Of a stretch of 64,000 nucleotides of DNA, positions 4,094 to 52,446 are shown one piece after another. The notes under the pieces are model-generated. The model was not told where the DNA came from, searched no databases, and was given only the letters and a program-made list of their open reading frames with translations. The first letter of the stretch is position 1; every line of letters begins with the position of its first letter. A program made the translations under genes and the position numbers. The stretch comes from Acidimicrobiia bacterium (GTDB lineage Bacteria > Actinomycetota > Acidimicrobiia > Spongiisociales > ZC4RG35): positions 128,001-192,000 of the forward strand of contig OZ244034.1 in NCBI GenBank assembly GCA_965215185.1. Direction: 5' to 3'.

Positions 4094-4252
4094 GCCCGCC
4101 ATTCTACGGGAGGACAACTGTGGGAGAGACCCGCTCTCGATGCTATATATGATGATTTCCACGAGGCCGGGTCGACTTGGCGAGCCAAGAAGTGTTTAGC
4201 CGGGGCGATCCGGCATTATCGGCGGACGCGGAAAGGAGTCGAGTCGGTAGCA

Positions 4253-9883: not shown

Positions 9884-9978
9884 CTTGATGCCTTTAGGAG
9901 GGTAACGGGCGCTCAACTTGCTATTTTGGAATCCTATCGCCTCATATAGGGCCTGTTAGCTGGAAGGAAGGAACCATT

Positions 9979-10470
9979 ATGCCGTCAGGCTTCCCCGATT
10001 GGACTCCACAAGGAGACACCGAAGAGACCCGTAGGCTGTTCATGCGATGGCTGGAGGGGCAGGAAGCGGATTTCCCCAACCCTCCGGATGACTCATGGAA
10101 GCAGAGACTGCTGGACCTTGTCGAGGAGTTCGTCCATCCCGACGTGGTGCTCCACAATGTGCCGGTGCGGCGCCCCGGGCGGGACGGCTGGGTCGAGTTT
10201 CTAATGGGGCTGGGAGAGGCCTATCCGGATTCCAACACGAATTACGACATCATTATGGTGGATGGTGACATGGCGGCCGCCCGCTGGCATTACACGGCCA
10301 CCCAGATGTCTTCGCACTTCGAGCATGAGGCGACTGGAAAGAAAGTCCGAGTGGACGGGGTGATGTTCGAGCGCTTCCGCGACGGCAAGATAGTTGAGCA
10401 TTGGGCGCTGATCGACCGCCTCAGCTGGCTGCAGCAACTGGGGTCGGTAGAGGAGTCGATTCGTCTTTGA
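9979..10470 (+). CDS. SnoaL-like ester cyclase / NTF2-fold protein (copy 1)
   Basis: HPDVVLH, EAYPD, DGDMAAARW, ATGKKV and RFRDGKIVEHW...D pattern. Confidence 0.85.
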   Translation: MPSGFPDWTPQGDTEETRRLFMRWLEGQEADFPNPPDDSWKQRLLDLVEEFVHPDVVLHNVPVRRPGRDGWVEFLMGLGEAYPDSNTNYDIIMVDGDMAAARWHYTATQMSSHFEHEATGKKVRVDGVMFERFRDGKIVEHWALIDRLSWLQQLGSVEESIRL

Positions 10471-10509
10471 ACCTCGACCTGAGACTGAGCCTTTAGAAAG
10501 GAGATCAAA

Positions 10510-11001
10510 ATGCCTGTTGTTCTACCAGAGGGGAATCCGGACGGGGACACGGAGGAGACCCGGCGGGTTTTCGTGGACTTTATGGTCGGGCAGGAGTCCG
10601 ACTTTCCCTACCCGCCTGATGACTCGTGGAAGGGCCGCATGCGGGCTCTGGTGGAAAAGTACGTCCATCCCGAGGTAGTGGTCCGCAACGTTCCGGTGCG
10701 CAGCCCCGGTCGGGATGGATACGCAGACTTTCTCATAGCCCTGGGAGAGGCCTATCCGGACGGGCAGACCACTTTCAACATGATCGTGGCGGACGGAGAC
10801 ACCGTTGCTTCCAAGTGGACCTTCAGGGCCACCCAGCAATTCGCCCACTTCGAGCACGGCGCCTCCGGTCAGAAGATCGAGGTGGACGGCATGTCGTTCG
10901 CCCGCATCCGGGACGGGAAACTGGCGGAGTACTACTCACTGGCCGACAAGCTGGCCTGGGCTAAACAATTGGGCATAGTGGACCCATCCGTGCAGCTCTA
11001 A
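10510..11001 (+). CDS. SnoaL-like ester cyclase / NTF2-fold protein (copy 2)
   Basis: Same length (163 aa) and motifs as copy 1. AAGGAG RBS. Confidence 0.85.
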   Translation: MPVVLPEGNPDGDTEETRRVFVDFMVGQESDFPYPPDDSWKGRMRALVEKYVHPEVVVRNVPVRSPGRDGYADFLIALGEAYPDGQTTFNMIVADGDTVASKWTFRATQQFAHFEHGASGQKIEVDGMSFARIRDGKLAEYYSLADKLAWAKQLGIVDPSVQL

Positions 11002-11044
11002 ACCTCTTGGTCTGAACTCCGCTCCGGTCCCGATACCGAATGGG

Positions 11045-12118
11045 TCAGGTGGCTAAGGGGCGGTAGTCGATGTCATAGCCAAAGGCCCGGGGCCCCACCA
11101 CCTCCAGGGCCCTGGAGGTCTTGAGGAGGTCGGGACACGGGATCACCAGGACATCAGTCCGCAGCCCGTATCGGACCAACTCGGTGGTGATCGGCTCGCC
11201 CTCGTCGCTGGTCACCAAGGTGATGAGATCGGGGACTGTCACGGGCACCCGTTCACCCTCGCGAATCACCAGGTTCTCGTTCTGGAAGTCGATCTCCACG
11301 CGGCGTCCTGCGTCGTCGTCCGACCCGTCGATCACCAGGCGTCCCTTCGCGAAGCCTCGCGTGGCGCGCCGTTCGACGTCGACTACCTTGCCTCGGATGT
11401 ACCGGCGCCCACCTGTCTGGCGCACAATGGCATCGCCCGGATCCTCGTGAAGTTTGCGGGCGGCTAGGACTGCTCTGCCTATGCGGATGGCGAGCGACAG
11501 CGTGTTGGGGATGATGAATTTGCGGCAGAAAGCCCCGTCCATCACCGCGGTGGCCAGGCCGGCGTGACCCCCCATGTCGATGGTGACCGACCGAAGAATT
11601 CTCTCGAGCCAATGGGCGTCGAGGATCCGGTCCACCACGATTCGGTTGCCCCGCTCGTCAGCCAGAGCGGCAGGGAACGGCGATCCCCCGTAGATAAGGT
11701 AGGTGATCATCTGCAGCTCGGGGAATGCCCTTCCCATACCGTCACCGTCTACAACAGGAATGCCGAGGCGGGCTCCGACGACCAGCGGCACCATCGAGTT
11801 ACCTCCGCCCATCTCGAATGGGGCGATGGCGGTGAATCGGCGGCCCAGGTAGCGCTCCAACGCCTGGACGGCGTCGGTCTCCTCGTTTCCTCCCGCCACC
11901 TTCTCGTATGCAACCACGGGAGAACCCATACCGCCTGCGACCACTAGAAGATCGTCGTCGGCTATCTCCGTCGGGTCGATGATTTCAATCTTCTTACCGG
12001 CGCGCAGCTCTGCACGGGCTCTCAGCCGTCCCAGGTAGGGGTTTCCGCCTCCGCCGGTACCGAGGATGGCCGCCCCGATCGCCGCAGGAGTGAGATCTTT
12101 CTCGGTTATCTCCCACAT
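11045..12118 (-). CDS. DUF917 family protein (thiohydantoin desulfurase-like)
   Basis: GAAILGTGGGGNP, MGSP, EMGGGNS, DGDGMGRAFPELQM, FQNENL, VPDLI and TTELVRYG motifs characteristic of DUF917. Confidence 0.9.
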   Translation of the reverse strand: MWEITEKDLTPAAIGAAILGTGGGGNPYLGRLRARAELRAGKKIEIIDPTEIADDDLLVVAGGMGSPVVAYEKVAGGNEETDAVQALERYLGRRFTAIAPFEMGGGNSMVPLVVGARLGIPVVDGDGMGRAFPELQMITYLIYGGSPFPAALADERGNRIVVDRILDAHWLERILRSVTIDMGGHAGLATAVMDGAFCRKFIIPNTLSLAIRIGRAVLAARKLHEDPGDAIVRQTGGRRYIRGKVVDVERRATRGFAKGRLVIDGSDDDAGRRVEIDFQNENLVIREGERVPVTVPDLITLVTSDEGEPITTELVRYGLRTDVLVIPCPDLLKTSRALEVVGPRAFGYDIDYRPLAT

Positions 12119-12186
12119 CTGTATCTGTTCCGCTTTACGAACCCCAACTCGAGCCTGTCAGTTTACGAGAGGGATCGATTCACCCA

Positions 12187-12498
12187 TCAGAAAGGACGTG
12201 GTTGGGGTGTCAGCATCCTGACGTCTACGTCGGCAATGTAATCCATGGGATCAAATGACAGGTCGTCCCACCGAGGATCGGCGTCATATCGTTCTTCGGC
12301 CTCTGCGAATGTCAAATCGCCTTCGTAGTGAACGATCCAAACGTACTGACATGTCTCCTCCACCAACCAGGGACCCTCGAGCCGGAACCCGTGATCCAAC
12401 CGGATTGGCACAATTTCCTGGTTCACCTTCGTGGCGAACTCTTGCCACGTGTCGGGATGGAGGCCGTAGATACGGAGCTGGGCGACCATTTCCGTCAT
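12187..12498 (-). CDS. NIPSNAP family protein
   Basis: QLRIYGLHP...P.RLDHGF....W......YVWI pattern. The real start lies in the 3' part of the 13047 ORF. Confidence 0.75.
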   Translation of the reverse strand: MTEMVAQLRIYGLHPDTWQEFATKVNQEIVPIRLDHGFRLEGPWLVEETCQYVWIVHYEGDLTFAEAEERYDADPRWDDLSFDPMDYIADVDVRMLTPQPRPF

Positions 12499-12606
12499 CC
12501 TAGCAGGCGTATTGACGGGGCCTGGTTGTTGCGCCGTCCATGCGGCGGGAGCCGCGTACCCACCTTTGGGTAGACTACGGTAACCGGAAATCTGAGGTGA
12601 TAATCG

Positions 12607-13467
12607 ATGCAATTCCTGGCGCCGAACACGGTAGAAGAGGCGCTTGTGATGCTGTCGGAACGAGGAGATGGTCTCCGAGTGCTGGCCGGTGGAACGGACG
12701 TGATGATTCAACGCATGACCGGCCAACTGCCTCGTTCCGAATCGCTGCTGTACATCGGGGGGATTGCCGAACTGCAAGGTGTGGATTGTTCGAATGGAAA
12801 TATCCGGATCGGCGCCCTGACCACCCACCGAGACCTGCGGTGTGATCCGATCATCACCACCAATCTGCCTTCGTTTGCCGAAGCCGCCGCTACGGTCGGC
12901 GGATGGCAGACCCAGGTCGTCGGCACTGTGGGAGGTAATCTCTGCAACGCCTCGCCGGCCGCTGATCTGGCGCCCCCGATCCTGGCGGCTGATGCCACCA
13001 TGGTGGTGTCCGGGGTGGATGGTCCTACTCGGATACCGGCCGACCACTTCTTTGTGGGTAGACGCCGCACCGCCCTCCCTCCGGGACAGATTCTGTTGGG
13101 GATCGAAGTGCCGGCGCCCCCGGCGGACACCTGGGAGTCCTATCTCAAGGTGGGACGCCGAAGCGCTATGGAGGTTGCCTTGGTGGGCTTGGCGGTCCGT
13201 TTCAGTGTTGTCGGCAACCGGATAGAGACAGCCCGATTAGGTGTCTGTTCGGTGGCGGTAACACCGCAGAGGATGCATCATGCCGAATCAGCGTTGGTGG
13301 GTTCTACTCTCGACGAGGGCGCGGTGGCGGTGGCGGTGCGACGGTCGATGGAGGAGGTCCATCCGATCGACGACCAGCGGGCCACCGCTACTTATCGTCG
13401 GATGCTGGTCGGGCGTCTCATCCGAAAAGCCGCCCGCGTTGCGCGTAAGAGGCTGGGGATCGAATGA
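12607..13467 (+). CDS. Molybdenum hydroxylase FAD-binding (medium) subunit
   Basis: LAGGTD, GTVGGNLCNASPAAD and PIDDQRATATYR motifs. Confidence 0.92.
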   Translation: MQFLAPNTVEEALVMLSERGDGLRVLAGGTDVMIQRMTGQLPRSESLLYIGGIAELQGVDCSNGNIRIGALTTHRDLRCDPIITTNLPSFAEAAATVGGWQTQVVGTVGGNLCNASPAADLAPPILAADATMVVSGVDGPTRIPADHFFVGRRRTALPPGQILLGIEVPAPPADTWESYLKVGRRSAMEVALVGLAVRFSVVGNRIETARLGVCSVAVTPQRMHHAESALVGSTLDEGAVAVAVRRSMEEVHPIDDQRATATYRRMLVGRLIRKAARVARKRLGIE

Positions 13468-13937
13468 CGCAGACGCTCACTTTCAAGGTCAACGGGATGC
13501 TGCGAACAGTGGAGGCCCATGGGGACGAAGTCCTCCTCGACACGCTTCGGGACCGCCTCTATCTGACAGGTACCAAGCGGGGGTGTGACGAGGGCGAGTG
13601 CGGGGCCTGTACGGTGGTTGTCGACCGGGCGCCTGTTCATTCCTGCATCTTCCCGGCGCTGGCGGCGGCGGGCACCGACGTCAGAACCGTGGAAGGCCTG
13701 GCCGGACGGGACGGAGAACTTAGCACCCTCCAGAAGGCCTTTGTCGACCGGGCGGCGGTTCAATGCGGCTTTTGCACCCCGGGTTTCCTGATGACCCTGA
13801 CCGCGCTGCTCGAGAGCAATGCGCCTACCTCTGACAGCGACATCGATGAAGCCATAGTGGGCAACATCTGCCGCTGCACCGGATACAGCGCGATTCGGGC
13901 CGCGGTCCGGTCTGTAGTGAGGGAGGGCGGGAGTTGA
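13464..13937 (+). CDS. Molybdenum hydroxylase [2Fe-2S] (small) subunit
   Basis: GCDEGECGACTV, QCGFCTPG and NICRCTGY. Confidence 0.95.
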   Translation: MTQTLTFKVNGMLRTVEAHGDEVLLDTLRDRLYLTGTKRGCDEGECGACTVVVDRAPVHSCIFPALAAAGTDVRTVEGLAGRDGELSTLQKAFVDRAAVQCGFCTPGFLMTLTALLESNAPTSDSDIDEAIVGNICRCTGYSAIRAAVRSVVREGGS

Positions 13938-16219
13938 CGGCTATAGGTCTGAGCACGCCGCGGTCAGATGCCGACGCCAAAGTGCGAGGGCTGGCCGTTT
14001 ACGGTGTTGACTACCGGGAGGTCGGGATGCTCCATGCCCGATTGCTGCGTTCCCCGGTTGCCGCCGGCAGAATCATCCGTCTGGACGTGACGGAGGCGCG
14101 CTCGAGCCCCGGAGTCCACGCGGTGGTGACCGCCGCCGAGGCGCCCCAACACCGCAATGGCCTGGTGCTACTGGACACGCCCTTTTTTCCAGGTGACACG
14201 GTGTTGTACGAAGGGGAACCCATTGCCATGGTGGTGGCCGACACGCCCCGGCAAGCCCAGTTGGCGGTGGAGACCATCGGACTCGATATAGAAGAGGTGG
14301 AACCGGTTTGCAACGTGGCGGAGGCGCTTCAGCCCGGCGCCAGGTTGTTGCATCCCGACCTGGATTCCTACGGCGCCATTCCCGGGGTCGGGCCCTGGCC
14401 GAAGGGGGGTAACTGTGGGGGGGTTTTGACCTCCGATCCCGGGGGGGTGGACGAAGCATTCGAACTAGCCGACATCATCGTGGAGGACTTTTACACGGTT
14501 CCTCGTCAGTACCAGGCGTATCTCGAGCCCAAGTCGGCTACTGCCTCCTATGACGGCTGGCGCTGGACCGTGCACGTGTCCCATCAATTCCCCTTCAACG
14601 CGCGTAGCAGGGTGGCGCAGGCGCTGGGAGTACCCCCCTCTCGGATCCGGGTGGTAGGACATCACATCGGAGGCGGGTTCGGGGCGCGTCTCGACCTCGG
14701 GCTCGAGCAGTATGCGGCCATCGGCGCTTCCCTCACCGGCCGTACCGTCCAACTGGTCAATGATCGGGTGGAAGACCTTATCTCCTGTATGTCCCGGGAA
14801 AACGCCACCATCAGGGTCCGCTCCGGGGTGACGAAACAAGGGCGGATCGTTGCCCGGGAGTTCCAATGTCTGATGGATGCCGGCGCCTACCAGGGCGATA
14901 CGGCTTATCTGACCAGCATCGCCCTTCTCATGGTGGGTTCGGTGTATCGGGTGGGACCCACCCGGGTGACTGCCAAGAGCGTGTACACCAACACGGCGCC
15001 GTCCGGGGCTTTCCGGGGTGTCAGCGGGACCTATATCTGTTTCGCCTTGGAGCGGCACACCGACCGCTTGGCGCAGGCGATCGGCATGGACCGGCGGGAG
15101 TTCCGGATGCGCAACCTCTTTGAGTCCGGCGACTCAATGCTCAACGGACAGACTCTGGACGACGCCGATATCTTGCGGGAAGCGTTCGACCGGGTCGAGG
15201 AGATCGCCCCTTGGACCGAGACCGGGAAGGGTCCCCTTAAAGGGGTGGGTTTGGCCGCGGTCATCTGGCTCACCAACCCCCTGGCCGGTTCGGCGACTGT
15301 GAGCATCCAAGAGGACGGCGCTCTGGGCGTCTCGACCGCCGCCACCGAAAACGGCAGCGGGGCGGTAACGATGGGAGTACGCCAGATCGCCGCCGCTGAG
15401 TTCGGTCTCGGCGCCGAGCAGGTGTTCGTGACTTCTCCGGACACTGACACACAGGCTTTTGACGCCGGATCCCAGGGGAGCAGAACCACCCATGTGGTGG
15501 GAATGGCCATTAAGGCAGCCGCCAAGCAGCTGAAACCACGCCTGTTCAACATCGCATCGGGCCTGCTTCACGCGCTCCCGGACGACCTGGAACTGGGCGG
15601 AGGCAATGTATGCGTGCGCGACGACCCGTCCCGAGCTGTTTCTCTGGGAGAGGTTGCCCGCACGGCTCTGGGCGTCGGCGGGCCTCTCAGCGCTACCGGG
15701 ACCTACAATGTCCCCCTCCCCAAATGGGATCCGGATTCGGCGCAAGGTCTGTTGTTTCCCGTCTTCCCGGTCCCCACCTATCACGTCCATCTCGCCGAAG
15801 TGGAGGTTGACCCCGACGATGGTTCGGTCCGGGTCACCCGATATGTCGTAGCTCAGGAGGTGGGGCGGATGATCAATCCGGATGGCGTCTATGGCCAAAT
15901 CCAGGGAGGAGTCGCCCAGGGGATGGGATATGCCCTCTGGGAAGGTTTGGAAAGCCAGAACGGTCGTTACACCCGCCGCACCTTGGAATCGTACGGGTTG
16001 CCGTTGGCTGTGGACATACCCGACGTGGAGATCATGGTTCTCGAACATCCGTGCGAGGCGGGTCCTTACGGAGCGAAAGGGGCTGCCGAGCCGCCCATAG
16101 TGCCCGTGGCGGCGGCGATCGCCAATGCCGTGTCGGACGCTACCGGCGCCAACATCACCAGGCTCCCGATAGATCCGGAGGAGTTGTTGTTGGCTATGGA
16201 CAATCGGCGGGAAGGTTGA
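13934..16219 (+). CDS. Xanthine dehydrogenase-family molybdopterin (large) subunit
   Basis: QAYLEP, IGGGFG, GAFRG, GSRTT, GQIQGGVAQGMG and GAKGAAEPP. Confidence 0.93.
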   Translation: MTAIGLSTPRSDADAKVRGLAVYGVDYREVGMLHARLLRSPVAAGRIIRLDVTEARSSPGVHAVVTAAEAPQHRNGLVLLDTPFFPGDTVLYEGEPIAMVVADTPRQAQLAVETIGLDIEEVEPVCNVAEALQPGARLLHPDLDSYGAIPGVGPWPKGGNCGGVLTSDPGGVDEAFELADIIVEDFYTVPRQYQAYLEPKSATASYDGWRWTVHVSHQFPFNARSRVAQALGVPPSRIRVVGHHIGGGFGARLDLGLEQYAAIGASLTGRTVQLVNDRVEDLISCMSRENATIRVRSGVTKQGRIVAREFQCLMDAGAYQGDTAYLTSIALLMVGSVYRVGPTRVTAKSVYTNTAPSGAFRGVSGTYICFALERHTDRLAQAIGMDRREFRMRNLFESGDSMLNGQTLDDADILREAFDRVEEIAPWTETGKGPLKGVGLAAVIWLTNPLAGSATVSIQEDGALGVSTAATENGSGAVTMGVRQIAAAEFGLGAEQVFVTSPDTDTQAFDAGSQGSRTTHVVGMAIKAAAKQLKPRLFNIASGLLHALPDDLELGGGNVCVRDDPSRAVSLGEVARTALGVGGPLSATGTYNVPLPKWDPDSAQGLLFPVFPVPTYHVHLAEVEVDPDDGSVRVTRYVVAQEVGRMINPDGVYGQIQGGVAQGMGYALWEGLESQNGRYTRRTLESYGLPLAVDIPDVEIMVLEHPCEAGPYGAKGAAEPPIVPVAAAIANAVSDATGANITRLPIDPEELLLAMDNRREG

Positions 16220-17772
16220 TTTTGCGCCTCGGCATCGATGTCGGAGGCACCAATACCGATGCGGTCCTGATGAAAGGTCGGCAGGTTGTGTCGGCCTGCA
16301 AGACTCCGACCACCCCCAATGTCTCATCGGGCATAGGTGCCGCCCTTGGGCAGATTCTCGCCGCCTCGTTGGTCGATCCCCGAGAGATTGCCGCAGTGAT
16401 GATCGGCACCACCCACTTCACCAATGCGGTTGTGGAGGCCCGGCAGTTGGCGGCCACTGCTGTGGTTCGCCTCGGGGCGCCGGCGACTCTTTCCATTCCT
16501 CCCATGACTGACTGGCCGGACCGTCTGCGCCAGGCTTTGGGTAGTCACACCTATGTGTGCCGCGGGGGCCACGAATTCGATGGACGGGAGATATCCGCCC
16601 TTGACCCCGATGAACTCAGACGCGTCGCGGTTGAGATCGGCGAAGCCGGTGTCACTTCGGTGGCCTTGACCTCGGTGTTCTCGCCGGTCAACGCCGAGAT
16701 GGAGACTGCGGCCGCCGCCATCTTCGCCGAGGAGCTTTCCGGGGTGACGGTCTCCCTTTCGAGGGAAATAGGACGGGTGGGTCTTCTCGAGAGAGAAAAT
16801 GCCACCATCCTCAATGCCTCCCTGGCTCCCCTCGCAGACCGTGTGTTCGACGGCTTCGAGGAAGTGGTGGCCCAAGCCGGGGTGTGCGCCCCTCTGTTCA
16901 TTTCGCAGAACGATGGGACGCTGTTGGGCCTCGACTATGCCCGCCGCTATCCGGTCGCCACGTTCGCGTCGGGCCCTACCAACTCGATGCGGGGCGCTGC
17001 CTTCCTGAGCGGTGTTTTGGACGGCGTCGTGATAGATGTGGGTGGGACGACGACCGACGTAGGAATTCTGGTAGGGGGTTTTCCCAGAGAGGCGTCGGTT
17101 GGGGTGCAGGTTGGTGGGGTAAAAACCAACTTTCGAATGCCCGACGTGCTGTCGCTGGGCATCGGCGGCGGTTCACTAGTCAGCTCTGACGGGAACGAGG
17201 TTACGGTCGGTCCGGAAAGTGTCGGTTATCGGCTCGACGAACGAGCGCTGGTTTTCGGTGGATCAGAACTCACCGCTACCGACATCGCGGTAGCTGGAGG
17301 TTTGGCGTCTATTGGGGATCGGTCTGCCGTCAACCAACTGGATCGAGGTGTGGTAAGGCTGGCGCTGGATCGGATCCGCCACGAGATTGCGCGAACGGTC
17401 GACCGACTGAAGACGAGCGCCGACCCGGTTATGGCCATCGTGGTGGGTGGGGGATCCATCCTGTTGGAGGACGGTCTTCCGGGTGTTAGGGAGATGATCC
17501 GACCGGCCCACTTTGCGGTTGCCAACGCCATCGGGGCGGCGATCGCTCAGGTCGGGGGAGAGGTGGACCGGATCTACTCTCTTGACGACCTCCACCGAGA
17601 GGAAGCCTTGGAATCCGCTCGCTCCGAAGCGGTGGATAGGGCGATTGTCGCAGGCGCCAACCCTGCCACGGTGGAGGTGGTGGATATCGAGGAGGTGCCA
17701 CTCGCCTATCTTCCTTCCAATGCGGTACGGATCAGGATGAAGGCCGTTGGAGATCTGGCATTGTCAGTCTGA
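16216..17772 (+). CDS. Hydantoinase/oxoprolinase family protein (HyuA-like, DUF917-partner type)
   Basis: GIDVGGTNTD, IGTTHFTNA, LLERENATILNA, SGPTNSMRGA, DVGGTTTD and VANAIGAA. TTG start overlaps the upstream stop. Confidence 0.9.
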   Translation: MILRLGIDVGGTNTDAVLMKGRQVVSACKTPTTPNVSSGIGAALGQILAASLVDPREIAAVMIGTTHFTNAVVEARQLAATAVVRLGAPATLSIPPMTDWPDRLRQALGSHTYVCRGGHEFDGREISALDPDELRRVAVEIGEAGVTSVALTSVFSPVNAEMETAAAAIFAEELSGVTVSLSREIGRVGLLERENATILNASLAPLADRVFDGFEEVVAQAGVCAPLFISQNDGTLLGLDYARRYPVATFASGPTNSMRGAAFLSGVLDGVVIDVGGTTTDVGILVGGFPREASVGVQVGGVKTNFRMPDVLSLGIGGGSLVSSDGNEVTVGPESVGYRLDERALVFGGSELTATDIAVAGGLASIGDRSAVNQLDRGVVRLALDRIRHEIARTVDRLKTSADPVMAIVVGGGSILLEDGLPGVREMIRPAHFAVANAIGAAIAQVGGEVDRIYSLDDLHREEALESARSEAVDRAIVAGANPATVEVVDIEEVPLAYLPSNAVRIRMKAVGDLALSV

Positions 17773-18064
17773 TTTCGCATTAGTGGGTGCTCGGACGCCT
17801 CCCCCGGGGGCTACACCATCGGCGACTTCATATCGACCATAGGATTGCCCAGACTCTTGGTCGAGGGGGCGTCTGTCCTAACCGCAGAGATCTCTGGCCC
17901 GTCGAAGAAACCCACCCTCAGCCGCGCCATGGCCGATCCGGGGGTAGCCTAAATGGGATTCGCATGACGCCACAGCAGATCCTCTTATACCTTGATGGGT
18001 CACCTGATTCGAGCGTCGCCTGCGCTCATACAAGTTAAGTAGAAAACAAATCAAGGAGGTTTTC

Positions 18065-19819
18065 GTGGAAAGTAGACGACTCCGGCTGGTTCGAGCCAAG
18101 AGGATGGCGATCCTGGTCACGTTGGCTCTGGTAGTAGCGGCGTGCGGAGGTGACGACCAGGATTCAGTTGCCACAACCGCAACCGCAGCCCCGGCCCAAG
18201 AGGCCACAACCACGGCGGCGCCGGCGGCGCCGACCACAACCGCTGCCGAAGAGATGGATGAGGAAGAAGCGCCGACTACGACGGCCGCGATGGTCGAGAA
18301 GCCGGTGATCGTGGCGTCCCTGGCTGACACACCCAACCTGATCGAGTTGCACACATTCCGCGCCACGTCCGCTTATGCGGTGACCAATGCGGCCTACGAG
18401 CCTCTGATCAAACAAGTCTTCGAGGAGCAGCCCAATGGGTTGTTGCAGGGGTCGTTCGTCGACCATGTCGGAGCGGGCGCCGAGTCCTTCGACATCCAGG
18501 AAACGGCCGATGGTGGTTTCCTGGCCACCTTCACGATCCGCCAGGGTCAGACCTTTTCTGATGGCACCCCGGTGACCGCCGCCGATTACAAGTACGTGTT
18601 CGACCGTTCGATCGAAGGTCCCGGGTACATAGGCCTGCTGCTTCCATTTGTGGGTATTTCGAGCACCGATCAGATCAGGGCGATCGACGATTACACCTTC
18701 GAGGTGGAGACCACCGTGCAGAGTCCCCTGTTTCACAGGTTCCTCACCTTCCAGGTGTTCGGAGCGATGAACCGGGCAGAGGCTGAGGCAAATGCCACCG
18801 AGGATGATCCATGGGCCTTTGCCTATTACAACGACAAAAGCGGCGGATCGGGACCCTACTACGTAGCCAAGTTCGACCCGGACAACGAAGTCGTGCTCGA
18901 ACCCAATCCCGGCTATTGGAATGCGGAGAATTTGGCAAACGCAGGTGTCATAATAAGGCCGATCCCCGACGCCAATGAGAAGGCGCGCCTGGTTTCGGCC
19001 GGCGATATCGACGTGGCGACCGGGATCCCGCCCAAGCTGCTTGCGGTTCTGCAAGATGATCCGAATGTGAAGATCTGGGCGAGCAAAACCACCGGTGTCC
19101 ACTACCTGGCCATGAACCAGACCATCGCACCGCTCGACAACGTCCATGTGCGCAAAGCCATCGTCAGCACCGTACCCTATCAGGCGCTGATAGACAGTGT
19201 GATGTTCGGTTTCGCGTCGCCTGCGGGAGGGGTCGTGACATCCACCATGGAGACCCATGACTCCTCGATCGGAGGCCAGTTCCAGCAAGACCTGGAGGCG
19301 GCTCGCGGCCATCTGGAAGCATCGGGTGTGGAAGATCTGACTCTGTTGCTGGGGGTACGTGAATCACGCCTTGGCGACCAGGAGGCGGCGGTGTTAATCC
19401 AAGATGCTCTCCGCCAGATCGGAGTCACGGTCGATGTGCAGATTCTGCCCGACGGCGATTTTGCCGGCCGGATAAATGCCAACGAACTGCCGCTGTTCAT
19501 TCATGACTGGTTCTCTTGGGGTGAGGATCCCTTCTACCAGATGAGATTCCTGACCACCTGCGGCCAGTTCGTCAACTACGCGCGTTTTTGCGACGAGGCT
19601 TATGACGCTCTTGTCCAGGAAGGCACATTCACCACCGATCCGGCGGTTCGCGGCGACGTCTCTTCCCAGGCGCAGCAGATCTTCTTGGATCAGGCGGTGT
19701 GGGCGCCGCTTTGGTCCTCAGATCGGACTACCGTCACCCACAAATGCGTTACCGGCGTAGTGCAGGATTACACGCGGATACCGGTCTTCACCGAGATGTC
19801 GAAGGTCCCGGACTGCTGA
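18065..19819 (+). CDS. ABC transporter substrate-binding lipoprotein, family 5 (Dpp/Opp-like)
   Basis: Lipobox LVVAAC, TTAAP linker, FSDGTPVTAAD, GSGPY, PNPGYW and VRKAI. AAGGAGG RBS. Confidence 0.92.
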   Translation: MESRRLRLVRAKRMAILVTLALVVAACGGDDQDSVATTATAAPAQEATTTAAPAAPTTTAAEEMDEEEAPTTTAAMVEKPVIVASLADTPNLIELHTFRATSAYAVTNAAYEPLIKQVFEEQPNGLLQGSFVDHVGAGAESFDIQETADGGFLATFTIRQGQTFSDGTPVTAADYKYVFDRSIEGPGYIGLLLPFVGISSTDQIRAIDDYTFEVETTVQSPLFHRFLTFQVFGAMNRAEAEANATEDDPWAFAYYNDKSGGSGPYYVAKFDPDNEVVLEPNPGYWNAENLANAGVIIRPIPDANEKARLVSAGDIDVATGIPPKLLAVLQDDPNVKIWASKTTGVHYLAMNQTIAPLDNVHVRKAIVSTVPYQALIDSVMFGFASPAGGVVTSTMETHDSSIGGQFQQDLEAARGHLEASGVEDLTLLLGVRESRLGDQEAAVLIQDALRQIGVTVDVQILPDGDFAGRINANELPLFIHDWFSWGEDPFYQMRFLTTCGQFVNYARFCDEAYDALVQEGTFTTDPAVRGDVSSQAQQIFLDQAVWAPLWSSDRTTVTHKCVTGVVQDYTRIPVFTEMSKVPDC

Positions 19820-19828
19820 GCGAAAAAA

Positions 19829-19866
19829 GGAAGGGCGGGGGCGGCCAGGCCGGTCCCGCCCTCCCT
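19829..19866 (+). other. Intercistronic stem-loop after the binding-protein gene
   Basis: ggaagggcggg...cccgccctccc inverted repeat. This position is typical of mRNA-stabilising or attenuating hairpins in ABC operons. Confidence 0.55.
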
Positions 19867-19875
19867 CAGTAGGGA

Positions 19876-20913
19876 ATGTCCTTTCGGATGTGGAGATATC
19901 TCGGAAGAAGATTGCTGGTGTCGGTAGCCACCGTGGCCGGCATAGTGGTAGTGGTGTTTTTCATTATGCGGGTACTGCCCGGCGACGCCGCGGCGGTACG
20001 AGCCGGGCCCTATGCCTCCGAGGAGAAGCTTGAACAGATAAGGGAACAGTTCGGCTTCAGTGATCCGATGCCGGTGCAGTTCGTCAACTATGTGCGGGAT
20101 GTGGTCGGTGGTGACCTGGGAACCTCGATCAGAACGGGTGGAAAGGTCACCGAAGAACTCCTTACCCGCCTGCCCGCTTCCCTAGAGCTTGCCTTCTATT
20201 CGGTGCTTCTGGCGGTGGTGGTCGGCGTCCCGATTGGCGTTACGGCAGCTTCCCGGCGGGACACCGGGATCGACAGGGCGGCGCGGGTGATTGCGGTTCT
20301 CGGATCGTCCATGGCGTTTTTCTGGCTGGGGCTGATGCTGACTTTCGTGTTCTTCTTCAAGCTCGGCTGGTTTCCAGGTCCGGTTGGAAGGCTGGCCATC
20401 ACTACGCAATCACCAGATCCCATCACCGGCTTCTTCACCTTCGACGCGGCTCTGGCTGGGAATTGGGGTCTCATGTGGGAGGCCTTTCGGTACCTTGCCC
20501 TTCCCGCTGTGACCGTGGGTTTCATACTGTCGGCGCCCATCCTCAAGATCGTTCGCTCCTCGATGATCGAAGTCCTCGACAGCGAATACGTCCGCACGGC
20601 CCGAGCCTTGGGGGTCCCCAGGCGTCAGGTTCTGTTTCGAGACGGCTTCCGTAACGCCTTGGTTCCGGTGACGACCGCCATCGGCATCGTCTTCGGATAC
20701 ATGCTGGGCGGCAACATCATCGTCGAGTTGATCTTCGCCTGGCCGGGCGTCGGTCGATACGCATATGAGGCATTGCGGGTCAGTGACCTGGAGGCCCTCC
20801 AAGGATTCGTGATTGTGGTCGGGTTGCTGTATATCGTTCTCAACGTTTTGATCGACTTCGTTTACAGCTGGATCGACCCCCGCATCAAGTTGGGGCAGAA
20901 AGTGGTGGCGTGA
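19876..20913 (+). CDS. dppB: Dpp/Opp-type ABC permease (B subunit)
   Basis: LPGDAA, GDLGTS, RLPASLEL, EAA loop YVRTARALG and IVELIFAWPGVG. Confidence 0.88.
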   Translation: MSFRMWRYLGRRLLVSVATVAGIVVVVFFIMRVLPGDAAAVRAGPYASEEKLEQIREQFGFSDPMPVQFVNYVRDVVGGDLGTSIRTGGKVTEELLTRLPASLELAFYSVLLAVVVGVPIGVTAASRRDTGIDRAARVIAVLGSSMAFFWLGLMLTFVFFFKLGWFPGPVGRLAITTQSPDPITGFFTFDAALAGNWGLMWEAFRYLALPAVTVGFILSAPILKIVRSSMIEVLDSEYVRTARALGVPRRQVLFRDGFRNALVPVTTAIGIVFGYMLGGNIIVELIFAWPGVGRYAYEALRVSDLEALQGFVIVVGLLYIVLNVLIDFVYSWIDPRIKLGQKVVA

Positions 20914-21791
20914 CTTCGATGTCCAACGCATCCAATTCCACTGGTTCGCCATTCGTTCCGCCTCGGATCGATACCCGCGAAAGACCCCTTCCCCTGGCCT
21001 CCCGCAAGCCCCTGGCGGTGGTGGGGATGATCATTTTGGCCATCTACATTTTGCTGGCCGCCGTAGGCCCCTTCTTCGTGGCGGACCCGGTGTCGACCAA
21101 TCCGACGGAAGCGCTGCTTTCTCCCTCCCTGGATCACTTTATGGGAACTGACAACTTCGGCCGCGATGTCTTTGCCAGGGCCGTTCACAGCGCGCGACTC
21201 GATCTGACCTTGGGTGTTGTTATAGCCATCTGCGCGATGGTGATCGGGTCGGCGATCGGGGTGGTGGCCGGTTACTGGGGAGGCGCCATTGATGAGACGT
21301 TGATGCGGTTCACCGACATCGTGCTGGCTTTCCCCGGCTTCGTGCTCGCCCTGATCCTGGTGGCGGTACTCGGTAACAGCACCCTCAACGTCGGCATAGC
21401 AGTGACCGCGGCATTCGTACCTTATTTCATCCGCCTCACCAGGGCTCAGGCCCTTTCCGAGCGGGGACTCGAATATGTGGACGGCGCCAAATTGGCAGGA
21501 AACCGTTCGGGACGAGTGGCCTTTGTCCATGTCCTGCCCAACTCGCTCCAGCCATCTTTGGTGACAGCCACTCTGGTGGCCGGCTGGGCGATCCTTACGG
21601 TGTCAGGGTTGGCTTTCCTGGGAGTGGGGATCAAACCTCCCACTGCCGAATGGGGTGTGATGGTAAGCGAAGGCGCCCGGGATATCGATGCCGGACACTG
21701 GTGGACTTCACTATTTCCGGGCGGGATGATCGTCCTGGCGGCTATGGCCTTCCACTTCATCGGTGATGAGTTCGGAGGCCGGGAGGCATGA
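20910..21791 (+). CDS. dppC: Dpp/Opp-type ABC permease (C subunit)
   Basis: HFMGTDNFGRD, HVLPN and LAFLGVG..PPTAEWG. Confidence 0.88.
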   Translation: MTSMSNASNSTGSPFVPPRIDTRERPLPLASRKPLAVVGMIILAIYILLAAVGPFFVADPVSTNPTEALLSPSLDHFMGTDNFGRDVFARAVHSARLDLTLGVVIAICAMVIGSAIGVVAGYWGGAIDETLMRFTDIVLAFPGFVLALILVAVLGNSTLNVGIAVTAAFVPYFIRLTRAQALSERGLEYVDGAKLAGNRSGRVAFVHVLPNSLQPSLVTATLVAGWAILTVSGLAFLGVGIKPPTAEWGVMVSEGARDIDAGHWWTSLFPGGMIVLAAMAFHFIGDEFGGREA

Positions 21792-22741
21792 GTCTGCTGG
21801 AGGTGGATGGGCTAACGGTGGGATTGGACCGTAGCCCGACATCGATCCTGGCCAATGTTTCCTTCAACGTACCGGCGGGCCAGATCGTTGGATTGGTGGG
21901 CGAGTCGGGTTCCGGTAAGACCATGGCCGCTTTAACCATGATGGGCCTCCTCCCCGATGGGATAGGGGTGCGGTCTGGCAGCATCCGTGTCGACAACCGC
22001 CAACTCATGGACCCCGACACGATGACGGTGAGGCGCCGAGCCGGCGACATGGCCATGATCTTCCAACATCCTCAAGCTGCTCTGAATCCGACCATGAAAG
22101 TTGGTCGTCAGATCGCCCGCGTGTTTTCCTTGCATCAAAGCTGTGGCCGCGGCGAGGCGATGTCGCAGAGCATCGAGATACTGGGCCGGGTGGGCATTTC
22201 CGGGGCGGGGCGGGTCGCGCAAGCCTATCCCCATCAGCTATCGGGTGGTATGTGCCAGCGGGTCATGATTGCCATGGCCCTTGCCTGCCGGCCCCGTATC
22301 CTGGTCGCCGACGAACCCACCACCGCGCTGGACGTGACCATCCAGGCCCAGATCTTCGATCTCATCAGGGACCTGGTGGCAGAAACAGGGGCAGGTGTCC
22401 TGTTCATAACCCATGACTTGGCGGCGGTGGCCGAGATGTGCGACACAGTCACTGTTCTGTTCGGAGGTCAAGTCATGGAGGAGGGATTCAGGGATGACGT
22501 TTTCCGGCGCCCTCGACACCCTTACACCAACTACCTGCTTGATTCGGTTCTAAAGGAGGTGGATCCCCAGGTCATCGAAGCTGGTGTCGATTTCGGGCTG
22601 GTCGGGTGTCGTTTCGGCCATCGGTGCCGCTACGCGTGGGAGGCGTGCGGTAAGGTGCCGGAGCTGGTAACCGTGGGCGAGGGCCACCGCTCCGCTTGCT
22701 TTCTGCACACTGTGGAGGAAAACGGTGCCGGCGCTTCTTGA
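21788..22741 (+). CDS. dppD: Dpp/Opp-type ABC ATPase (D subunit)
   Basis: GESGSGKT, YPHQLSGGMCQR, ADEPTTALD, HPYT and a C-terminal Cys cluster. Confidence 0.9.
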   Translation: MSLLEVDGLTVGLDRSPTSILANVSFNVPAGQIVGLVGESGSGKTMAALTMMGLLPDGIGVRSGSIRVDNRQLMDPDTMTVRRRAGDMAMIFQHPQAALNPTMKVGRQIARVFSLHQSCGRGEAMSQSIEILGRVGISGAGRVAQAYPHQLSGGMCQRVMIAMALACRPRILVADEPTTALDVTIQAQIFDLIRDLVAETGAGVLFITHDLAAVAEMCDTVTVLFGGQVMEEGFRDDVFRRPRHPYTNYLLDSVLKEVDPQVIEAGVDFGLVGCRFGHRCRYAWEACGKVPELVTVGEGHRSACFLHTVEENGAGAS

Positions 22742-23678
22742 GGTAAGAGGGCTCCGCAAAACGTTCGGCCGTGGGCGTGGCGCCCTACCAGCGGTCCGTG
22801 GGGTGGATCTGGATGTGGAGCGAGGGGAGACTGTGGGGGTGGTGGGCGAATCCGGTTGCGGCAAGACTACGCTGGCCAGGATGGTGGCAGGCCTTACCCG
22901 GGCCACCGACGGCCTTATCCGCTTCGATGGATCGGTTCTGGATGGACATTCGGCATCGATGGAGAACCGACAGCGGATCCAGATGGTGTTTCAACATCCG
23001 GCGCAGTCGCTGAACCGCCGCATGTCGGTTGGCGCGATGCTGGCCGAGCCCCTTCGACTCTTGGCCGGAGTTCCCAAATCAGAGACAACCCATCGCATCG
23101 AGGAGATGCTGCAATTGGTGGGTCTGGATGCAGCCTTTCGGAACCGCCGCCCGCGACAACTCTCCGGAGGCCAACAACAGCGGGTGGCGATCGCCCGCGC
23201 CCTGATGCCCGATCCCGATCTGGTGGTGCTCGACGAGCCCACCTCGAGTCTGGACCAGTCGCTGCGGGGTCGCATCATCGCTCTGCTCCGCGGGATTCAG
23301 GAGATCAGGGGAGTGTCCTATTTGCTCATCAGCCACGATCTGGGCACTGTCCGCCGGATCGCCGACCGGGTGGCGGTGATGTATTTGGGCAGGATTGTGG
23401 AGGTCGCCGGGACCCGGGAACTCTTCGAGGACCCTCGTCATCCTTACACCAAGGCACTGTTGTCGGTGGCACCCACCATGGACTTGGACAAGGTGCGAGA
23501 CAGGATCACCCTCGAAGGGGAGACTCCTAGTCCCACCGACCTGCCGACTGGCTGTTCCTTCCAAGATCGGTGCCCGTTGGTGTTCGATCGCTGCCGGCAT
23601 GAGTCTCCGGTTCTGACTTCGGTGGCCAGCTATCGTAAGGTGGAATGCTTCGCCGCCGGACCCGAATCCGACTCCTGA
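22725..23678 (+). CDS. dppF: Dpp/Opp-type ABC ATPase (F subunit)
   Basis: [27 protein letters not shown] and GCSF..RCP. Confidence 0.9.
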
Positions 23679-23697
23679 TGCTGGGAAGGATTCGCTC

Positions 23698-24699
23698 GTG
23701 ACCCAAGACAGAGCGATCGGGCTGGTGCTGGGCAGTGCTATAGCGCCCTCGGACCTGGCTGCGGCCGCGCGAACGGCAGAGCAGGGGGGCTTTGACGAAA
23801 TATGGCTTGCGGAGGACTTCTTCTTTACCGGCGGCATCTCCGGCGCTTCGCTGGTGCTTTCGGCCACCGAACGGACCGTGGTGGGGCTCGGTGTGGTGTC
23901 GGCAATGGTAAGGCACCCGGCCCTCCTTGCTATGGAGATCTCGACGATCTCGGCCGGGTATCCAGGGCGGTTGACTGCCGGTGTCGGACTCGGCGTGCCC
24001 GGATGGATACGCCAGATGGGCCTGCATCCCCGCTCCCCGCTAACTGCGATGCGGGAGAGCGTTTCGTCGGTCAGACGGCTGCTGGCGGGAGAAACACTCG
24101 ATGGGAATGGCAAGGTGTTCGATTTCCACGATGTGACGCTCACCTATCCCGAAACGGGAGTCCCCACCCCGATCCACATGGGCGTGACCGGTCCGAAGAT
24201 GCTCCGCCTGTCAGGGGAGATCGCGGACGGTACGGTGCTCTCTGTGGCTGCCAGTCACGAGTACGTGCAATGGGCCAGGGAACGGATCGATGAGGGACGG
24301 CGGTTGGGGGGACGGTCCGGGCCACATCGGATAACCCTCTTCGCCATATATTCGGTGGCCGACGATCCCCAACAAGCCCGCAGAGCGGTTCGCGGTCCCC
24401 TCTCGTTCTACAAGTCGTTGGGCGCCAATGCTCTGACCGACGTGTACGGGAATTCCGAACAACTCCGCAGCCTCATTGACAGCGGTGGCTATGAAGCGGT
24501 GCGCCAGGGGATGCCCGACCAGTGGATTGAGGATCTCACCATCGCCGGCTCACCGCAGGAGGTAGCCGCCAAGATCGAGAGTTTCTACGAGATCGGCGCC
24601 GACTGCGTAGCGCTCTTCCCAATGCCCAGTGACCAGGTCGGCCGCATGGTGGAATTGACCGCCGAGCAGGTCCTACCCCTGTTGAGAACCCGCGGCTGA
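23698..24699 (+). CDS. LLM-class oxidoreductase (Mer-like, probably F420-dependent)
   Basis: GFDEIWLAED, RHPALLAME, GPKMLRLSGEIADG and IAGSP. Confidence 0.88.
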   Translation: MTQDRAIGLVLGSAIAPSDLAAAARTAEQGGFDEIWLAEDFFFTGGISGASLVLSATERTVVGLGVVSAMVRHPALLAMEISTISAGYPGRLTAGVGLGVPGWIRQMGLHPRSPLTAMRESVSSVRRLLAGETLDGNGKVFDFHDVTLTYPETGVPTPIHMGVTGPKMLRLSGEIADGTVLSVAASHEYVQWARERIDEGRRLGGRSGPHRITLFAIYSVADDPQQARRAVRGPLSFYKSLGANALTDVYGNSEQLRSLIDSGGYEAVRQGMPDQWIEDLTIAGSPQEVAAKIESFYEIGADCVALFPMPSDQVGRMVELTAEQVLPLLRTRG

Positions 24700-24749
24700 A
24701 CCGCTGGCGGTTAGCCGAAAGCGCGGCGGCTTAACACGAGTTGCCTGGA

Positions 24750-25310
24750 TCAGTCCAACTCGTTGATCGTTACCGAGTTGATCGTCACGTCGGTCAGCGG
24801 CCGGTCGTTGCGGCCGGTCGCCACATTTTGCATGGCGTCCACCACGTCCAGTCCTTTCACCACTTTGCCGAACAGCGAATATTGCGGCGGGAGTCGGCGG
24901 CCGTTGGGCCCGCTGATGATGAAGAACTGGCTCCCGTTAGTGTTTGGCCCGGCGTTGGCCATGGCCAGCGAGCCAAGTTCGTAGCGTCCCGGCTTGGGCA
25001 ACTCGTCGGCAAAGCGGTACCCAGGACCACCCCGCCCCGTGCCGGTGGGATCGCCGCCCTGGCAGACGAAACCTTTGATGATGCGATGGAAGATCACACC
25101 GTCGTAGTAGTGGTAGCGGGCCAGCACTACGAAGTTGTTCACGGTGCGGGGAGCGGAGATCGCATCCAAAGCGATGGTGATTGTGCCCATTGACGTCTCC
25201 ATCACCGCGGTGTAGGACTTGGCCGCATCGATACAAATGGGGGGCGGTTTGGGGAATTCGCGGCGGACAGGACTGGATCCGTCCTCGGCGGGGCAAGGGG
25301 TGTCGGCCAC
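24750..25310 (-). CDS. Cyclophilin-type peptidyl-prolyl cis-trans isomerase
   Basis: FHRIIKGFVCQGGDPTGTGRGGPGY and AMANAGPNTNGSQFF. GTG start 25310 follows AAGGAG. Confidence 0.95.
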   Translation of the reverse strand: MADTPCPAEDGSSPVRREFPKPPPICIDAAKSYTAVMETSMGTITIALDAISAPRTVNNFVVLARYHYYDGVIFHRIIKGFVCQGGDPTGTGRGGPGYRFADELPKPGRYELGSLAMANAGPNTNGSQFFIISGPNGRRLPPQYSLFGKVVKGLDVVDAMQNVATGRNDRPLTDVTINSVTINELD

Positions 25311-25593
25311 TGGAGGCTCCTTTACTGCTGAATCTTCGGATTGGAGGGACGGGCTAACCCTAATCACGCCCCCTACGTGCAGGGGCATGTTGGAGGGATC
25401 CGCTCCCGGTGGGCAGTGCGCGGCGGCGATCAGGCCGCGGGCGACGCTGAGGTAGTCTCGTCATCTCTCGCCATATGTCTCCCGGATAAGCGGCTCCTTG
25501 GAGGCGACCCTGCGTAGGGCCTCCATCCGCGACTTGGATGGTTGCCTCGCCTACTCTGGAGACGGTCGACACCGAGTGTCAGGGGTGATCAAC

Positions 25594-47885: not shown

Positions 47886-47959
47886 ATCTCTCTGAGCGGA
47901 CTTCCTGCGGAGCGCACCTCTATATTTGGCGTGCAAGACTTACGCGAGATGGGAGAGCG

Positions 47960-51668: not shown

Positions 51669-51673
51669 GCGCG

Positions 51674-52432: not shown

Positions 52433-52446
52433 TAGAAGGTCGGATC

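Follow-up and report, generated by a model that had tools for sequence, protein, structure and literature searches.

The DNA analyzed here, hereafter the window, is a stretch of 64,000 nucleotides (nt) from an Acidimicrobiia bacterium (assembly GCA_965215185.1, contig OZ244034.1, positions 128,001 to 192,000). It carries adjacent genes for a DUF917 protein, a short HyuA-like ATPase, the three subunits of a molybdenum (Mo) hydroxylase (CoxM, CoxS, and CoxL), a Dpp-type importer, and an oxidoreductase of the LLM (luciferase-like) family. Genomic comparison shows that the DUF917, HyuA-like, LLM, and three Mo hydroxylase genes make up a six-gene unit, that the HyuA-like ATPase and DUF917 are paired, and that an importer is commonly located alongside this pair. 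The linkage of these genes is far beyond chance, and they form one functional unit. We see about an even chance that the region as a whole represents a copy of a conserved module that breaks down an imported N-heterocycle or cyclic amide. An earlier note, made from the DNA letters, had described the locus as a coherent and undescribed gene combination that processes thio compounds. The first part of that interpretation stands, whereas the thio-compound chemistry does not.

Pairing of the HyuA-like ATPase with DUF917

The HyuA-like protein of the window shares several characteristics with the HyuA/HyuB hydrolases, which include N-methylhydantoinase, 5-oxoprolinase, and caprolactamase. It has the Hydant_A_N and Hydantoinase_A domains (126 and 108.6 bits, with the Hydantoinase_A profile covered from 1 to 171 of 291), two DxGGT-type motifs (DVGGTNTD and DVGGTTTD), and a fixed partner gene. 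Its best matches in the PDB are N-methylhydantoinase (7hk5, 4e-25) and caprolactamase alpha (6yra, deposited as 5-oxoprolinase). In contrast to these hydrolases, the partner is DUF917, no HyuB gene is adjacent, and the protein is ∼170–200 amino acids (aa) shorter than the eight canonical HyuA proteins of the same genome.

The genome is a single 3.12-megabase (Mb) contig with exactly two DUF917 genes and ten Hydantoinase_A matches. Eight of these matches are long HyuA frames (687–799 aa), each of which adjoins one or more of 10 HyuB genes. The remaining two are short HyuA-like genes that have no HyuB nearby, as judged from genome-wide PF02538 matches, and these two accompany the two DUF917 genes. 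None of the 10 HyuB matches falls inside the window, as the earlier note had observed. Eight full-length HyuA and 10 HyuB genes represent an unusually large hydantoinase/oxoprolinase complement for a 3.1-Mb genome, and three of the HyuB genes are arranged in tandem at C1:1183281-1188324.

The pairing recurs in other species. One-genome-per-species contigs were subjected to a pattern scan with both DUF917 paralogues, the best 80 of at least 486 confirmed relatives were taken as the locus set, and the window proteins were mapped onto these 80 loci by tblastn. The loci form two groups: 28 are close (DUF917 at least 61% identical) and 52 are distant (45%–57%). The distant loci come from Alphaproteobacteria, Thermomicrobiales, a Vibrio, and others. 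Their HyuA-like and DUF917 proteins belong to the same families as those of the window (45%–60% identity), the HyuA-like gene directly adjoins DUF917 in 43 of the 52, and permeases and ATPases of the same ATP-binding cassette (ABC) type are present in 40. These operons differ from the window in that two or more DUF917 genes, mostly in tandem, are found in 43 of the 52 (L040–L091; for example, L069, 8440-12200), and in that neither the Mo enzyme nor the LLM is found in any (0/52).

In eukaryotes, the two proteins are joined. Of the 112 DUF917 homologues that exceed 625 aa, 108 also have Hydantoinase_A domains on the same polypeptide. The other four (P0002–P0004 and P0051; 668–770 aa) are DUF917-only proteins that are too long for one copy. 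The fused HyuA-like::DUF917 proteins (P0005–P0113; ∼900–1080 aa) occur in green algae, fungi, and marine invertebrates such as amphioxus, bivalves, echinoderms, and corals, and no vertebrate source is present among the matches listed. Residues 12–536 of a starfish fusion of 1007 aa align with the entire HyuA-like protein (46%), and residues 595–998 align with the entire DUF917 protein (40%). An AlphaFold2 (AF2) model of this fusion, based on 68 aligned sequences, has a predicted local distance difference test score (pLDDT) of 89.1 and a predicted template modeling score of 0.90. Only the linker (540–580) is disordered, and the model is suggestive of a defined packing of the two modules.

On the strength of the fusion proteins, the bookkeeping of partners within the genome, and the adjacency in operons, DUF917 very probably takes the place of HyuB as a functional stand-in, a role that the earlier note had suggested with some hesitation. 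In all likelihood, the HyuA-like ATPase and DUF917 are partners in one two-part enzyme.

In the fused model, the HyuA half is similar to the ATP-binding subunits of two amide hydrolases (N-methylhydantoinase and caprolactamase) and of two carboxylases (acetone carboxylase and acetophenone carboxylase), and it fits the latter about as well as the former. The pair might accordingly be an ATP-dependent carboxylase or a phosphorylating enzyme that resembles acetone/acetophenone carboxylase. However, the known activities of the DUF917 family are hydrolytic, judging by family names, and the peptide-type importer of 40 of the 52 distant loci suits polar nitrogen compounds better than ketones. We consider a carboxylase to be quite unlikely.

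The DUF917 protein has both Pfam domains of its family (PF06032 and PF20906; 197.6 and 226.9 bits, with a cut-off of 27). Its AF2 model (pLDDT 91.9) yields a single structural match by Foldseek and VIA-align, which is 2o3i (VIA Z 38.9, root mean square deviation of 2.5 Å over 336 residues). This match is a structural-genomics protein of unknown function that is itself a member of the DUF917 family. Work on ergothioneine catabolism reportedly gave the DUF917, or S-Me-THD, family its name. In the model of the earlier note, hydroxylation turns an imported thio-imidazole or thio-pyrimidine into a thiohydantoin-like ring, from which DUF917 takes the sulfur as H2S or methanethiol before ATP is spent on ring opening. 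It is true that the Pfam and NCBIfam names of the family refer to thiohydantoin desulfurase and its S-methyl counterpart, and the window protein has the same full-length Pfam domains and the 2o3i fold as the desulfurases of ergothioneine catabolism, but the agreement ends there. The protein misses the cut-offs of both desulfurase equivalogs by far (NF058529, 90.8 of 450 bits; NF058532, 77.9 of 440 bits). No ergothionase, thiourocanate hydratase, or sulfide- or thiol-handling gene was found in the window, in a second copy of the module described below (locus B), or in eight other Pfam-mapped loci. The window also lacks a urocanase homologue, as had been stated, and the sole urocanase and HAL-type lyase of the genome are a hut-like pair that adjoin each other at C1:1.58 Mb, 1.4 Mb away. 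Furthermore, pairing or fusion with an ATPase is obligatory for the protein, whereas the known desulfurases reportedly act alone, and the fusions across eukaryotes point to a joint ATP-dependent reaction rather than to a lone desulfurase. The thio-compound model is therefore very unlikely, and no evidence emerged for its order of steps, in which hydroxylation to a thiohydantoin precedes desulfuration.

The six-gene unit within and between genomes

Locus B is located near 3.02 Mb (L011, C1:3.02 Mb; G000:C1:3012000-3031000, positions 8993-16533), where all six families recur in a rearranged order, DUF917, HyuA-like, LLM, CoxM, CoxS, and CoxL, on one strand. Identities between the window and locus B are 40% for DUF917, 50% for HyuA-like, 47% for LLM, 44% for CoxM, 54% for CoxS, and 53% for CoxL, and in each of the six cases the two proteins are reciprocal best paralogues within the genome. 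For CoxL, CoxM, LLM, and HyuA, the paralogues that come next have identities of ∼30%–33%. The margin is small for CoxS, since other paralogues have an identity similar to the 54% of its locus B partner and differ from it by a lower score. An old duplicate that has kept all six genes despite a reshuffled order is strong evidence that these genes work together. The LLM, which the earlier note had counted among the set, belongs to the module because it was duplicated along with the other genes, even though the importer lies between it and the Mo enzyme in the window.

A DUF917 tree splits into two subfamilies, one for each of the tandem genes in the alphaproteobacterial operons. The window protein is type 1 and the locus B protein is type 2, and both types occur in one cluster in L018 and in L022/L023. 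The enzyme may normally hold two different DUF917 subunits, with this genome splitting both types over two loci. The clade that includes the window protein has 31 rows, of which 27 are Mo-linked. Locus B also includes an IS110-family transposase gene (L011, 946-2325) and part of a further CoxM/CoxL set on the opposite strand (17320-18851).

Mostly, the 28 close loci derive from metagenome-assembled genomes of Acidimicrobiia, several of which are named Candidatus Poriferisodalis. The HyuA-like gene is present in 25 of the 28, a CoxL orthologue (defined by at least 45% identity) in 24, the LLM in 19, and an orthologous importer in eight. Two of the close loci that lack CoxL are cut by contig ends (L019 and L038), and the other two (L015 and L016) are truly without it. 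In the latter two (L016, 8276-12166; L015, 1633-7555; DUF917 88%–91% identical), the hyuA-like and duf917 genes are directly divergent neighbors and the block of NIPSNAP and coxMSL genes is missing. An aminotransferase block is also missing from L016, and the flanks are syntenic with the window.

The same association is found when the search starts from CoxL. In 301 genomes of the class, orthologues form a band of 53%–59% identity in eight of the 300 others, followed by a gap down to 36% or less. Eight orthologue loci have enough flanking sequence (L092 and L096–L102), and all eight carry the HyuA-like and DUF917 genes; five short contigs (L093–L095, L103, and L104) were left out of this count. 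A control locus with a 36%-identical CoxL has neither gene. When all CoxL orthologues with at least 1600 nt of downstream room are considered, the HyuA-like gene lies directly downstream from coxL on the same strand in 30 of 34 loci and elsewhere in the locus in the other four. Colinear coxM-coxS-coxL-hyuA-duf917 operons are present in L096, L097, L099, L101, and L102. In a sample of 400 genomes from elsewhere in the phylum, no CoxL orthologue was found (E up to 1e-150), and a metagenome scan with CoxL yielded four loci, three of which are too short for context.

The earlier note had recommended a search for neighborhoods with DUF917, Hydantoinase_A, and a Mo hydroxylase. Such a search recovers a conserved combination across species, and the linkage is not confined to this genome, given the counts of 24/28 and 30/34 above and the existence of locus B. 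Could the arrangement nonetheless be an accident, with unrelated operons that happen to lie side by side in a catabolic island crowded with genes? The window is rich in amidohydrolases, LLMs, and short-chain dehydrogenases/reductases (SDRs) and has a second CoxMSL set, DUF917 is encoded on the other strand, and a 292-nt gap separates the importer genes from the hyuA-like gene. An accident of this kind is nevertheless extremely improbable in view of the in-genome duplicate with its reciprocal best paralogues, the conservation across species in both directions (from DUF917 and from CoxL), and the colinear coxMSL-hyuA-duf917 operons elsewhere.

Two further sets of genes were considered as members and rejected. 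A class-III aminotransferase was a candidate for a conserved partner (12 loci in clustering of open reading frames [ORFs]), and the window enzyme proved to be only ∼31% identical to the others. An accessory set in L017, L018, L022, and L025, which includes PALP, an M24 prolidase-like protein, a second LLM, SDRs, and a 2-hydroxyacid dehydrogenase, was placed outside the invariant module for lack of orthologues in this genome. In these four loci, an SDR is encoded directly downstream from the hyuA-like gene (L017, 3995-4756), and its second-best NCBIfam match is dihydropteridine/dihydrofolate reductase (161 of 325 bits). Together with a Mer-like LLM, this SDR gives a weak hint of pteridine-like rings as substrates; the window has no such SDR.

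A few close-locus contigs are labeled Gammaproteobacteria, Acidobacteria, Poseidoniales, or Streptosporangiaceae. The first two of these labels, on L022, L023, and L025, may reflect binning rather than real spread. The G+C content of L022 and L023 is 0.56–0.57, versus 0.60–0.69 in other loci, and L024 (labeled Poseidoniales) is almost identical in DUF917 to L026 (labeled Acidimicrobiales).

Predicted chemistry of the module

The Mo enzyme matches the three-subunit hydroxylases of the xanthine-oxidase family in its subunits, gene order, coupled starts, and catalytic residues. Members of this group include 4-hydroxybenzoyl-CoA reductase (4-HBCR), 6-hydroxypseudooxynicotine/nicotine dehydrogenase, quinoline 2-oxidoreductase, and bacterial xanthine dehydrogenase (XDH). 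The window enzyme differs from them in that its CoxL clade is restricted to loci that have the HyuA-like and DUF917 genes. CoxL scores below every NCBIfam equivalog cut-off (4-HBCR alpha, 426/995; XdhA, 411/780; PucD, 397/784; XdhB, 259/850; aerobic CO dehydrogenase [CODH], 273.5/991 bits) and reaches at most ∼53% of any of them. Its best solved relatives are 4-HBCR, mycobacterial CoxL, and 6-hydroxypseudooxynicotine dehydrogenase.

CoxL retains the catalytic Glu (...AAEPP...), which aligns with the catalytic Glu of 1rm6, 8uem, and 7dqx, as well as the Arg of ...AFRG... and the active-site Gln in ...RQYQAYLEP.... In its motif GGGFGARL, Leu occupies the position of a Glu in the GGGFGGKE-type motif of XDH. 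We take this Glu to be the residue that binds xanthine or the substrate, and the roles of the other residues in the Mo subunit are presumed likewise. The loop ...SGAFRGVSG... stands in place of ...AYACSFR... in 8uem, and there is no AYxCSFR CODH loop. Judging from these sequence features, the protein is a genuine hydroxylase-type enzyme. The cut-offs and motifs rule out a xanthine, nicotinate, or CO dehydrogenase, so that the enzyme is not the plain xanthine/nicotinate dehydrogenase that the earlier note had named as the outcome that would undo its proposal.

All of the best NCBIfam and PDB matches of the LLM are F420 enzymes (Mer and FGD), with scores below the cut-offs (158 of 276 bits for Mer). 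F420 can be made by this organism, because CofH (466 vs. 374) and CofE (251 vs. 181) are both present above cut-off. The Dpp/Opp-type importer is complete, with all five components present (a family-5 solute-binding protein, two BPD_transp_1 permeases, and two oligo_HPY ATPases). The binding protein reaches no NCBIfam equivalog and gives no ligand clue.

A route can be proposed from what is known of these families. The importer, with its lipoprotein binding component, would take up an N-heterocycle. The Mo hydroxylase would then place an oxo group beside the ring nitrogen of the N-heterocycle or of a cyclic imine to give a lactam, and the F420-type LLM would adjust the redox state or saturation of the ring by reducing or oxidizing a C=N or C=C bond. 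Finally, the HyuA-like protein and DUF917 would spend ATP to hydrolyze the resulting stable cyclic amide, as HyuA/HyuB enzymes do. A precedent for this order is the anaerobic breakdown of nicotinate by Eubacterium barkeri, in which a Mo hydroxylase makes a lactam, a ferredoxin-dependent reductase saturates the ring, and an enamidase opens it. The window has an F420-type LLM and the HyuA-like/DUF917 pair instead, and the parallel is an analogy only.

The tight translational coupling of coxL to hyuA fits consecutive steps, with the order not fixed by it. The Mo enzyme might thus act after ring opening or on a side product, for example as an aldehyde oxidoreductase on a semialdehyde. Such a role would agree with the resemblance of CoxL to aldehyde oxidoreductases and archaeal glyceraldehyde dehydrogenase (310–369 bits, below cut-offs), with the lack of the Glu that presumably binds xanthine in XDH, and with the aldehyde dehydrogenases and aminotransferases near some loci. 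However, the best matches of CoxL are ring-acting enzymes (4-HBCR, 6-hydroxypseudooxynicotine dehydrogenase, and XdhA), the aminotransferase by the window cluster is not conserved (31% identity to those of other loci), and the frequency of the coxL-hyuA coupling (30/34) suits consecutive steps. A role after ring opening is unlikely, and we favor hydroxylation of the ring before it is opened.

If this preferred route is taken further, then HyuA-like/DUF917 proteins would represent a new class of ATP-dependent ring-opening amidohydrolases, conserved from bacteria to green algae, fungi, and marine invertebrates, in which an unrelated fold replaces HyuB. In marine and sponge-associated Acidimicrobiia, the pair would carry out the last step of an undescribed Mo/F420 route that mineralizes a marine N-heterocycle. 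We put this forward as a tentative possibility. Candidate substrates under such a scheme are a pyrazinone or cyclic-dipeptide-derived compound, a pteridine, or a pyridine or pyrimidine derivative.

Several observations weigh against the module as proposed. Which substrate is degraded, and in what order the steps run, is guesswork, and no protein of the HyuA-like/DUF917 pair, nor any in the CoxL and LLM clades concerned, was found to have a tested function. Characterized DUF917 enzymes are reportedly stand-alone hydrolytic desulfurases that work without an ATPase. Foldseek and VIA-align reveal no HyuB-like fold in DUF917, so any equivalence to HyuB would be functional, without detectable homology. 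The loci are also less independent than their number implies. Eleven Poriferisodalis-type loci are near-identical in DUF917, which makes many of the loci close kin, and we estimate about a dozen independent lineages rather than 34. The PALP, M24, second LLM, and SDR genes of L017, L018, L022, and L025 are without orthologues in this genome. Moreover, L015 and L016 keep the HyuA-like gene, DUF917, and a pair of SnoaL genes without the Mo enzyme. In L016, a 91%-identical, Pfam-mapped relative that is syntenic with the window, NIPSNAP, coxMSL, the importer, and the LLM have all been lost, and tblastn gave no importer or LLM in L015. Because these two loci lack them, the HyuA-like/DUF917 pair is best viewed as a core that is not strictly dependent on the other genes, which are additions. 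It is in a set of mostly marine Acidimicrobiia that the Mo hydroxylase and LLM are joined to this core. A final reservation concerns the transcript data presented below, which are assembled contigs of a relative from libraries that may hold DNA.

Gene layout and wider context

All genes named by the earlier note were found by ORF listing and Pfam where it had placed them, and the 4-nt overlaps that it reported for coxM, coxS, coxL, and hyuA are present at all three junctions (ATGA, TTGA, and TTGA). The features of the locus are as follows.

Features of the locus, with positions given in the window
Feature	Position	Strand	Evidence and remarks
SnoaL-like protein 1, 163 aa	9979..10470	+	Pfam SnoaL 1.2e-28
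SnoaL-like protein 2, 163 aa	10510..11001	+	Pfam SnoaL 2.4e-23; 56% identical to protein 1
DUF917 (S-Me-THD family), type-1 subfamily	11045..12118	-	Pfam S-Me-THD_N + S-Me-THD_C, E 1e-58 to 1e-67
NIPSNAP-like small protein, ~103 aa, dimeric alpha-beta-barrel type	12187..12498	-	Pfam NIPSNAP 1.4e-6, 28.9 bits vs. cut-off 22.3
Divergent intergenic region, 108 nt, between NIPSNAP/DUF917 arm and coxMSL-hyuA arm	12499..12606		Sequence
FAD-binding subunit (CoxM/XdhB type)	12607..13467	+	Pfam FAD_binding_5 + CO_deh_flav_C
2x[2Fe-2S] subunit (CoxS type)	13464..13937	+	Pfam Fer2 + Fer2_2; ATGA overlap with coxM
Molybdopterin subunit (CoxL type) of xanthine-oxidase-family hydroxylase	13934..16219	+	Pfam Ald_Xan_dh_C, MoCoBD_1, MoCoBD_2
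Short HyuA-like ATPase, 518 aa, TTG start	16216..17772	+	Pfam Hydant_A_N + Hydantoinase_A
Family-5 solute-binding lipoprotein (Dpp/Opp type)	18065..19819	+	Pfam SBP_bac_5 2e-70
ABC permease 1	19876..20913	+	Pfam BPD_transp_1
ABC permease 2	20910..21791	+	Pfam BPD_transp_1 + OppC_N; GTGA overlap
ABC ATPase 1	21788..22741	+	Pfam ABC_tran + oligo_HPY
ABC ATPase 2	22725..23678	+	Pfam ABC_tran + oligo_HPY
LLM oxidoreductase, probably F420-dependent	23698..24699	+	Pfam Bac_luciferase 2e-51, 175.6 bits; starts 19 nt after ATPase 2

Two SnoaL-like genes, which lie just beyond the point where the earlier note began, are part of the neighborhood, and the second of these converges on the 3′ end of DUF917. 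The SnoaL pair is found next to DUF917 in five loci (the window, L012, L013, L015, and L016), and a different SnoaL_2 subfamily occupies the same position in 10 others. The NIPSNAP-like gene is found only in the closest relatives L012–L014 and L092. Its Pfam match corresponds to the C-terminal end of a listed 286-aa ORF that would overlap coxM, and in-frame ATG codons at 12498 and 12489 suit the match, which gives a protein of ∼100–103 aa. For the solute-binding protein, a GTG start codon at 18065 follows AAGGAGG, and the N terminus is of the lipoprotein type with a lipobox-like sequence.

The divergent intergenic region produced neither a sigma-70-like match nor an Rfam match. Across 9800–25600, no Rfam family was detected (E up to 0.1), and the single promoter-like match is located inside coxS; shuffled sequences gave more.

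Four metatranscriptome runs from one study include contigs that are 95%–99% alike to the locus and cover pieces of both arms. These contigs touch the second SnoaL gene, the NIPSNAP-like gene (12158-12442), coxM/coxS, coxL, the hyuA-like gene, the binding protein, a permease, and the LLM. It is for the binding protein that the contigs are longest (up to 1582 nt) and deepest. Several genes or bins are uncovered, which proves nothing either way. These data hint, if only weakly, at natural transcription of both arms.

The surroundings of the locus are those of a catabolic island. Between 26937 and 45791 are five amidohydrolase-family genes, one of which (750 aa) overlaps an aminotransferase gene by 4 nt, along with two further LLM genes, a metallo-beta-lactamase-fold protein, an AMP-binding enzyme, and an NMT1-type ABC system. 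Another CoxM/S/L set, unrelated to the first, is present at 47960–51668 (CoxL ∼29% identical) in a region (45863–53739) that has MoxR-type AAA and VWA CoxE-like proteins before the set and an SDR and a class-III aminotransferase after it. On the other side, a proline-racemase-family protein is encoded in a 632-aa frame (3410–5308) of which the Pfam match spans residues 291–626 only, which implies a long N-terminal extension or a start that was called too early.

Literature searches, with most subscription journals outside their scope, found neither a described pathway with this gene combination nor a characterized HyuA-like/DUF917 pair, in keeping with the view of the earlier note, and they gave no paper on the desulfurases. 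In a preprint on cyclodipeptide oxidase, DUF917 proteins are described as uncharacterized, suspected hydantoinases that are enriched near hydantoin racemase and AroM genes (10.1101/2023.09.25.559410). Of two other papers, one has DUF917 only in a mutation table (PMC9503626) and the other has "hydantoinase" only in the reference list (PMC8305020).

DUF917 and the short HyuA-like protein constitute a large family pair without a known joint function, with at least 486 bacterial relatives and with fusions in eukaryotes. In the module described here, the pair is linked to a dedicated Mo hydroxylase, to an F420-type oxidoreductase, and to a binding protein, and the possible chemistry is thereby narrowed to oxidized N-heterocycles or lactams. 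The binding protein can be used to screen for ligands, and the two paralogous enzyme sets of this genome can be compared with each other. If the pair is an ATP-dependent lactamase with a new second subunit, then the hydantoinase/oxoprolinase class would be extended. If the substrate is a common metabolite of the sea or of sponges, the module would represent a new route of nitrogen recycling in abundant uncultured symbionts.

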